NCBI RefSeq assembly: GCF_013167455.1
Contig: NZ_CP038328.1
DNA: 64,000 nucleotides
Strand: one strand, 5' to 3'
Source: Escherichia coli O157:H7
Lineage (GTDB): Bacteria; Pseudomonadota; Gammaproteobacteria; Enterobacterales; Enterobacteriaceae
Numbering within the stretch: the stretch's first letter is position 1; every line of letters starts with the position of its first letter. Position numbers and translations under genes: made by a program. Shown here piece by piece: positions 24,444 to 24,461 of this stretch. Below the pieces are notes generated by a model. That model was not told where the DNA came from, made no database searches, and saw nothing but the letters and a program-made list of their open reading frames with translations.

Positions 24444-24461
24444 ATCCTACAGGCGTAAGAA
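24444..24461. promoter_or_regulatory. candidate EvgA box in the evgA-emrK divergent intergenic region
   Basis: ATCCTACAGGCGTAAGAA resembles the recalled 18-bp EvgA inverted-repeat consensus (TTCYTACA-NN-TGTARGAA). Confidence 0.4.

Follow-up and report, generated by a model that had tools for sequence, protein, structure and literature searches.

A probable EvgA operator, unchanged from K-12, upstream of an IS629-interrupted emrKY operon in Escherichia coli O157:H7

What remains of a regulatory circuit once the operon under its control has been broken by an insertion sequence (IS)? This question arises in a 64,000-nucleotide stretch of Escherichia coli O157:H7 DNA (contig NZ_CP038328.1; its whole length is called the window here), where a sequence-only reading had pointed to a candidate box for the response regulator EvgA at positions 24444-24461, upstream of an emrKY operon whose pump gene emrY is split by IS629. 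Our analysis indicates that this element is very probably the already known EvgA operator of the emrKY/evgAS control region, unchanged from K-12. An intact switch upstream of an inactivated operon is ordinary biology, and of a kind already described.

The EvgA box between evgA and emrK

Direct reading of positions 24444-24461 (plus strand) gave ATCCTACAGGCGTAAGAA, which agrees with the EvgA consensus TTCYTACA-NN-TGTARGAA (TTCYTACANNTGTARGAA) at 14 of the 16 specified positions and bears out both the sequence and the count of two mismatches reported in the sequence-only reading. The mismatches are an A for T at box position 1 and a C for T at box position 11. Written as ATCCTACA-GG-CGTAAGAA and without an assigned strand, the 18-bp box is an imperfect inverted repeat, since its half-sites are just 5/8 self-complementary. 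It is located in the 415-bp intergenic region (24220-24634) that separates the divergent evgA and emrK genes, upstream of both, at 173 nt from the emrK start codon and 224 nt from that of evgA. Viewed in the emrK direction, the half-site nearer to the gene approximates GTAAGAA and the distal one is degenerate, an asymmetry that the boxes of ydeP, safA and yfdX also show.

The consensus used in that earlier reading was tested empirically in three K-12 loci adding up to 52 kb. Upstream of frc the match was perfect. A single mismatch was seen for yegR and for safA-ydeO, where the box lies 111 nt ahead of the start codon, and two mismatches were seen for ydeP and for the emrK-evgA region; yfdX has one site with 1 mismatch and a second site with 3. 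No further site with at most 2 mismatches exists in these 52 kb, and all of them sit upstream of known direct EvgA targets; with 0-2 mismatches upstream of safA, ydeP, yegR, frc and yfdX, the consensus proved genuine. Masuda & Church reportedly described, in 2003, seven directly induced operons sharing six motif sites, with evgAS counted among the operons. The K-12 matches reproduce this pattern of six upstream regions for seven operons. From this pattern and from the computations described here, these exact 18 bp are very probably the operator and would coincide with the published DNase I footprint (Kato et al. 2000) and gel-shift oligonucleotides (Masuda & Church 2003).

How often would such a box arise by chance? 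At a threshold of at most 3 mismatches, the window contains four matches against 0.65 expected, a number reached in 1 of 100 shuffles. All four lie upstream of EvgA-regulon genes: 12109-12126 (1 mismatch) and 12147-12164 (3 mismatches) precede yfdX, 13141-13158 (0 mismatches) precedes frc, and the box at 24444 precedes emrK. In addition, a position weight matrix was trained on five K-12 sites outside the evgA-emrK intergenic region—with the emrK site excluded—and the emrK box scored 18.1 bits. Only orthologs of the training sites, those of frc and yfdX, score higher in the window, which puts the emrK box third; the best site outside the regulon in the 64 kb reached 5.5 bits with the same matrix. 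Only 0.025% of 20,000 random 415-bp sequences with the intergenic composition attained the score of the emrK box (P ~2.5e-4), and none of 30 random 64-kb sequences held a site at that matrix score.

Two statements on the function of this region come from the literature, namely the binding of EvgA at the emrKY promoter region and the dependence of emrK induction on EvgS and EvgA. Direct binding of EvgA at the emrKY promoter region is credited to Kato et al. 2000 in several papers. In K-12, both pH 5.7 and the constitutive evgS1 allele (F577S) switched on a PemrK-yfp fusion, which was no longer inducible in a delta-evgAS strain (Roggiani et al., PMC5706723). The primers listed for this fragment in the primer table of that paper map to window positions 24114-24549, and the PemrK-yfp fragment therefore contains the box. 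A Shigella emrK-gfp fusion with the whole intergenic region was likewise silent in a delta-evgA mutant. The emrKY operon is described as directly EvgA-regulated, and the box lies in its 5' control region. The effect of mutating the repeat on EvgA-dependent induction has reportedly been examined for ydeP and b1500; the emrK box is not known to have been mutated in this way.

The sequence of the intergenic region was compared at increasing distances. It is 100% identical to that of O157:H7 genomes, in which the flanks are annotated as evgA, evgS, emrK and emrY, and 98% identical to that of K-12 MG1655, where the 18-mer (positions 2,483,513-2,483,530 of NC_000913.3) is 100% identical. Across eight E. 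coli intergenic regions (96.4-100% identity), 28 of the 415 positions vary, and the only variation inside the box falls on the unspecified spacer base at 24452. A genome scan with EvgA retrieved L005 and L006 as its only close loci; the remaining hits were KvgA-like loci at a greater distance and response regulators of no relation. None of the named Escherichia species that might be expected was among them, so that the phylogenetic footprint draws on few sequences. Locus L005 is labelled E. coli and has an 86% identical intergenic region. Locus L006, on the 590-kb contig NZ_CACVAF010000001.1 labelled Yersinia vastinensis IP38594, has a 65% identical intergenic region and an EvgA with 94% identity. 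Both keep the divergent evgA-emrK layout with the box at the aligned position: TTCCTACAGGTGTAAGAA in L005 (0 mismatches, 27.1 bits) and TGCCTACACGTGTAAGAA in L006 (1 mismatch, 23.2 bits). The two mismatched positions of the window are occupied by consensus bases in both loci, and a matrix scan of the rest of their intergenic regions found nothing above 3.2 bits. In the four-way alignment with these 86% and 65% identical regions, the longest invariant block is GTAAGAATTGTATT (24455-24468, plus strand), comprising the emrK-proximal half-site and 7 flanking bases.

Three further observations concern these alignments. The TAAGAAT within the invariant block was considered as an RcsB half-site and rejected, as the second half, TCCTA, is absent at the required spacing. 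The EvgA of L006, 94% identical to that of E. coli, is far closer to it than the homologs of Klebsiella, Hafnia and Buttiauxella (66-71%); horizontal transfer could explain its presence on a Yersinia-labelled contig, as could an assembly that is mislabelled or chimeric. Finally, E. coli NCTC10444 (locus L091, positions 2501-3400) carries an IS1A element in the evgA-emrK intergenic region, 175 bp from evgA, with fimbrial genes in place of emrKY; the EvgA box and the emrK promoter are lost in this strain, and evgAS is retained.

Promoter geometry and alternative roles of the box

From which position would EvgA act on emrK? Six EvgA promoters were lined up downstream of their boxes in the direction of the regulated gene, and 100 nt were scanned. 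In five of the six, a -10-like hexamer (A at position 2, T at position 6) starts 52-54 nt after the box, which is the best-populated window. The emrK hexamer, TAAATT, begins 54 nt after the box, and ydeP—not counted among the five—has a weaker TAATTT (3/6) at 53 nt. In L006, where the intervening sequence has diverged, TAGAAT is found at the emrK-like spacing. A further conserved element, TTTAGTCCTCTGTT (24482-24495, plus strand), occupies the stretch 21-34 nt after the box and is conserved in L005 and L006; it reads AGTCCT-CTGTT in emrK, with counterparts at the same spacing in safA (AGTCCTATT), ydeP (AGTCTTATT) and yegR (AATCCTATT). Judging from the sequence alone, this element may be a -35-region contact or a secondary EvgA half-site.

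Two published constructs bear on the same distance. The ydeP leader is 178 nt long (Gorelik et al.), which places the ydeP start site 66 nt after its box and the box centre at -74.5. Roggiani et al. describe their yfdX reporter fragment as lying upstream of the start site, and its end falls 69 nt past yfdX box b. Because the hexamer spacing, the ydeP leader and the end of the yfdX fragment agree, we favour TAAATT at 24515-24520 (plus strand) as the candidate -10 of emrK, with a predicted start at ~24527 and the box centred at ~-74.5; on spacing, this appears to be the most likely geometry.

Several points count against our interpretation of the box and its promoter. The emrK box is among the weaker members of its family, with two mismatches, one of them (the C at position 11) in the TGTA core, and 5/8 self-complementarity. 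The lack of variation at the 16 specified positions within E. coli is not significant by itself, as about one variable position would be expected. Moreover, the enrichment of hexamers at 52-54 nt is modestly significant, at ~0.03 when allowing for the windows tested, and the core promoter may instead be formed by GATAAT at 24540-24545 or, in a class II arrangement, by TTTAGT at 24482-24487. A generic sigma-70 scan of the intergenic region was uninformative, with a single site against 2.6 expected, located upstream of the box.

These other core promoters make up the strongest alternative, in which the box is a real EvgA site that works in another geometry: either class II at ~-41.5, with a start at ~24494, or a far-upstream primary site at ~-98, from which further EvgA molecules would extend toward the promoter, as BvgA does at fha. 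Taken jointly, the two versions form a serious possibility, less probable than the arrangement at ~-74.5. The conserved motif among EvgA promoters begins 20-21 nt after the box, which would suit the class II version. Yet the critical A at position 2 is missing from four of the six hexamers at 21-26 nt (CAGAGT of ydeP and TATAAT of yegR have it). This version, in which TTTAGT would be the -10 and the box would sit at -41.5, was downgraded on these hexamers together with the start at ~66 nt to which the ydeP leader and the yfdX fragment point and the clustering at 52-54 nt. For the far-upstream version, the alternative candidate -10 GATAAT (24540-24545, plus strand; predicted start ~24551) is the best -10 match downstream of the box (5/6) and lies in a block, GTTCCnGnGAnnATnnG, that is conserved in L006. 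In addition, the PemrK fragment is said to cover the region upstream of the start site, and its last position, 24549, falls just short of the start that GATAAT predicts. Against it, the 79-nt spacing from box to GATAAT has no counterpart at the other five promoters, and both the 178-nt ydeP leader and the end of the yfdX fragment fit a start ~66 nt after the box. A box centred at ~-74.5 thus remains the geometry that we prefer for emrK.

The box also faces evgA (23605-24219, minus strand), which encodes a 204-aa response regulator identical to that of K-12 at 204 of 204 residues and is annotated in O157:H7. The annotated evgA promoter (24343-24378, minus strand) starts transcription at 24343, giving a 124-nt leader, and has a perfect TTGACA -35 at 24373-24378, with the box centre at -109.5. 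The leader length agrees with T7-evgA-WT in the supplement of PMC11052181 and with the '-124 to +8' segment of PMC11210196. On the same strand, a TATAAT-like hexamer is present at 24393-24398, 46-51 nt from the box, reading TATAAT here, TACAAT in K-12, TATAAT in L005 and TATAGT in L006; the single-nucleotide difference from K-12 (A at window position 24396 versus G) converts TACAAT to a perfect TATAAT on the evgA strand. This hexamer could belong to an unannotated, possibly EvgA-dependent, upstream evgA promoter. At the other end of the leader, the 9-codon open reading frame evgL (MLHCKGNNL; 24216-24245, minus strand) overlaps the evgA start codon and is conserved here; PMC11210196 reports that CsrA represses the translation of evgA, which is coupled to evgL.

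Could the box then serve mainly, or equally, as an autoregulatory site that activates evgAS, with activation of emrK being secondary? We regard this as unlikely and as a minor alternative. A near-palindrome between two divergent operons would be in keeping with such a role, as would the -10-like hexamer conserved 46-51 nt away on the evgA strand, as would the place of evgAS among the directly induced operons that Masuda & Church reportedly listed in 2003. The literature disagrees on autoregulation, because PMC11210196 remarks that EvgA 'is reported to be autoregulatory', whereas evgA fusions showed no response to mild acid and autoregulation of evgAS is denied by the Utsumi group. These unresponsive fusions argue against the autoregulatory role, as does the annotated evgA start at 24343, which has a perfect TTGACA of its own and leaves the box at -109.5. 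Moreover, the asymmetry in the emrK direction and the box-to-hexamer spacing are those of ydeP, safA and yfdX.

The two mismatches (one in the TGTA core) and the 5/8 internal symmetry might suggest that the box arose by chance in AT-rich intergenic DNA, or that it is the remnant of a site that has decayed and lost its function. This is highly improbable given the P of ~2.5e-4 per 415-bp random sequence, the 12 bits that separate the box from the best background site of the 64 kb, the retention of the box—with changes toward the consensus—in regions 65-86% identical, and the presence of the identical K-12 sequence inside a fragment that confers EvgA-dependent induction.

The EvgAS circuit and the IS629 insertions

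Is the remainder of the circuit in working order? The sequence-only reading had taken the regulatory input to be intact, and this view holds: EvgA is identical to K-12 at all 204 positions, EvgS is full length with 97.83% identity, and the 18-mer is the K-12 one. The evgS gene (20007-23600, minus strand) encodes an intact hybrid sensor kinase of 1197 aa with 26 substitutions relative to K-12, and its identity value is the figure given for EDL933 in Table 1 of PMC5706723. In that study, acid raised the activity of an EvgA reporter 8- to 60-fold in the tested non-B2 strains, EDL933 included. On the other side of the box, emrK (24635-25798, plus strand; GTG start) is an intact periplasmic adaptor gene of 387 aa that differs from K-12 by one residue and is annotated in O157:H7.

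The site itself is base-identical to that of K-12, and this strain differs in context only: the downstream operon is inactivated here by an IS. The earlier assignment of the element in emrY to IS629 was likewise correct, and the element is a complete 1310-bp member of the IS1203 family (IS629 group) flanked by an ATC target duplication (26899-26901 and 28212-28214). The 5' portion of emrY (25798-26901, plus strand) comprises codons 1-368 of 512, and its frame ends at a TGA made by the first bases of the IS. The IS629/IS1203-type IS3-family element follows (26902-28211, minus strand), with orfB at 26944-27834 and orfA at 27831-28157, and the displaced 3' portion, codons 369-512, occupies 28212-28649 (plus strand), as delimited by in-silico excision. 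With the IS removed in silico, emrY again encodes a protein of 512 aa, with 1 difference from the EmrY of O157:H7 strain PV15-279 and 4 from that of K-12. The termini of the element agree at the first 13 of 13 bases (TGAACCGCCCCGG), and its open reading frames of 108 and 296 aa overlap by 4 nt, as befits the IS629/IS1203 group, whose members are ~1.3 kb long and have imperfect terminal inverted repeats, overlapping orfA and orfB and target duplications of 3-4 bp. RefSeq features under the matches read 'IS3-like element IS1203 family transposase' (the IS629 group), and many copies are seen per O157 genome (17-40 places per record). In O157:H7 strains PV15-279 and 86-24, emrY is uninterrupted.

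From these components, a course of events can be proposed. Under aerobic conditions, EvgS would sense mild acidity together with alkali metals and phosphorylate EvgA, and an EvgA dimer, with its NarL/FixJ-type helix-turn-helix, would bind the two half-sites across the GG spacer. Bound EvgA would then activate the weak emrK promoter downstream (-10 TAAATT, start ~24527), where the AGTCCT-type conserved element around -40 may assist the recruitment of RNA polymerase. Since switch, regulator and sensor are all intact, emrK should still be inducible in this strain. The transcript would run into the IS629 copy after codon 368 of emrY, so that no EmrKY-TolC pump would be formed.

A second IS629 copy (13671-14980), 100% identical to that in emrY and in the same orientation, cuts frc after codon 87. 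The frc pieces lie at 13410-13670 and 14985-15974, the target duplication is GATC, and excision restores a 416-aa Frc; in O157:H7 strain 86-24, frc is intact. Two EvgA operators of the window thus control broken operons, because the perfect frc box precedes an IS-disrupted operon, as does the emrK box. Both insertions resemble the IS629 insertions that pseudogenise O157:H7 genes in their 1310 bp, termini, overlapping orfA/orfB and target duplications of 3-4 bp. They differ in their sites, as a search of 5,426 complete E. coli genomes found neither the emrY-IS nor the frc-IS junction.

Between the two copies lie 11.9 kb that hold oxc, yfdV, a yfdE pseudogene, evgS, evgA and emrK. It is a rather far-fetched idea that the copies represent more than random hits. 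Were this so, their arrangement, which knocks out EvgA-controlled effector operons on both sides of evgAS, would also form a composite-transposon-like unit or a substrate for an IS-IS recombination that would delete evgAS, the master regulator of exponential-phase acid resistance. Transcription from the retained frc and emrK boxes, induced by acid, would then enter the IS copies antisense to the transposase genes and couple IS629 activity to acid stress.

Additional features of the window were noted alongside. The yfdE gene (18810-19951) has a 4-bp deletion (CAGT) after 18986 relative to K-12, with a frameshift near codon 60; the deletion allele occurs in 203 complete genomes, with O157:H7-type strains among those listed, and the gene carries a 'frameshifted' annotation in 86-24. 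Unlike the IS insertions, this frameshift appears to be a lineage trait. Downstream of emrY, positions 28757-33009 contain dsdA, a short dsdX remnant, a gene for a LacI-family regulator and cscA. Sucrose genes thus stand in place of dsdC-dsdX, the O157-type arrangement that is also annotated in PV15-279. Finally, a 239-nt direct repeat with 80% identity is present at 47918-48156 and 57942-58180, 10 kb apart.

Related systems and biological meaning

The box shares its consensus and its asymmetry, and probably its spacing to a candidate -10-like hexamer, with the boxes of the K-12 EvgA regulon (ydeP, safA/b1500-ydeO, yegR, yfdX, frc/yfdW and emrKY-evgAS). A more distant likeness is found in BvgAS, after which EvgAS was named. 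At the Bordetella fha and bvg promoters, BvgA, which like EvgA belongs to the NarL/FixJ family, binds as a dimer to an inverted repeat that lies well upstream of the core promoter. The half-sites of this repeat are TTTCCTA-like, and the EvgA half-site TTCCTACA resembles this heptad. The two systems differ in organism and regulon; cooperative filling-in toward the -35 is documented for BvgA, whereas for EvgA at emrK it is speculation.

Closer to Escherichia, KvgA-type loci of Klebsiella, Buttiauxella, Hafnia and Enterobacter, whose EvgA homologs are 66-71% identical, carry weaker TTCCTAC palindrome-like sequences upstream of the regulator gene. These read TTCCTACAGCTGTCATCC in L008 (203-220) and L011 (2196-2213), being identical in Klebsiella and Buttiauxella, TTCCTACGTCTGTAGTCC in L009 (2413-2430) and GTCCTACGTATGTAGGCG in L007 (2065-2082). 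With 10-11.5 bits, they score far below the emrK box, and none comes within 3 mismatches of the consensus. Such resemblances hint that the EvgA half-site may be older than the Escherichia EvgA regulon.

The value of these findings is mainly one of annotation, in that a known operator can be labelled in an O157:H7 genome. For the strain itself, emrK expression or an emrK reporter should still report on EvgS activity, and phenotypes that depend on EmrKY should be lacking. These would be resistance to deoxycholate and fitness in macrophages, the latter by analogy with Shigella. Together with the cut frc and the frameshifted yfdE, the locus offers a small example of IS-driven erosion of effector genes in which the regulator and its operators persist.
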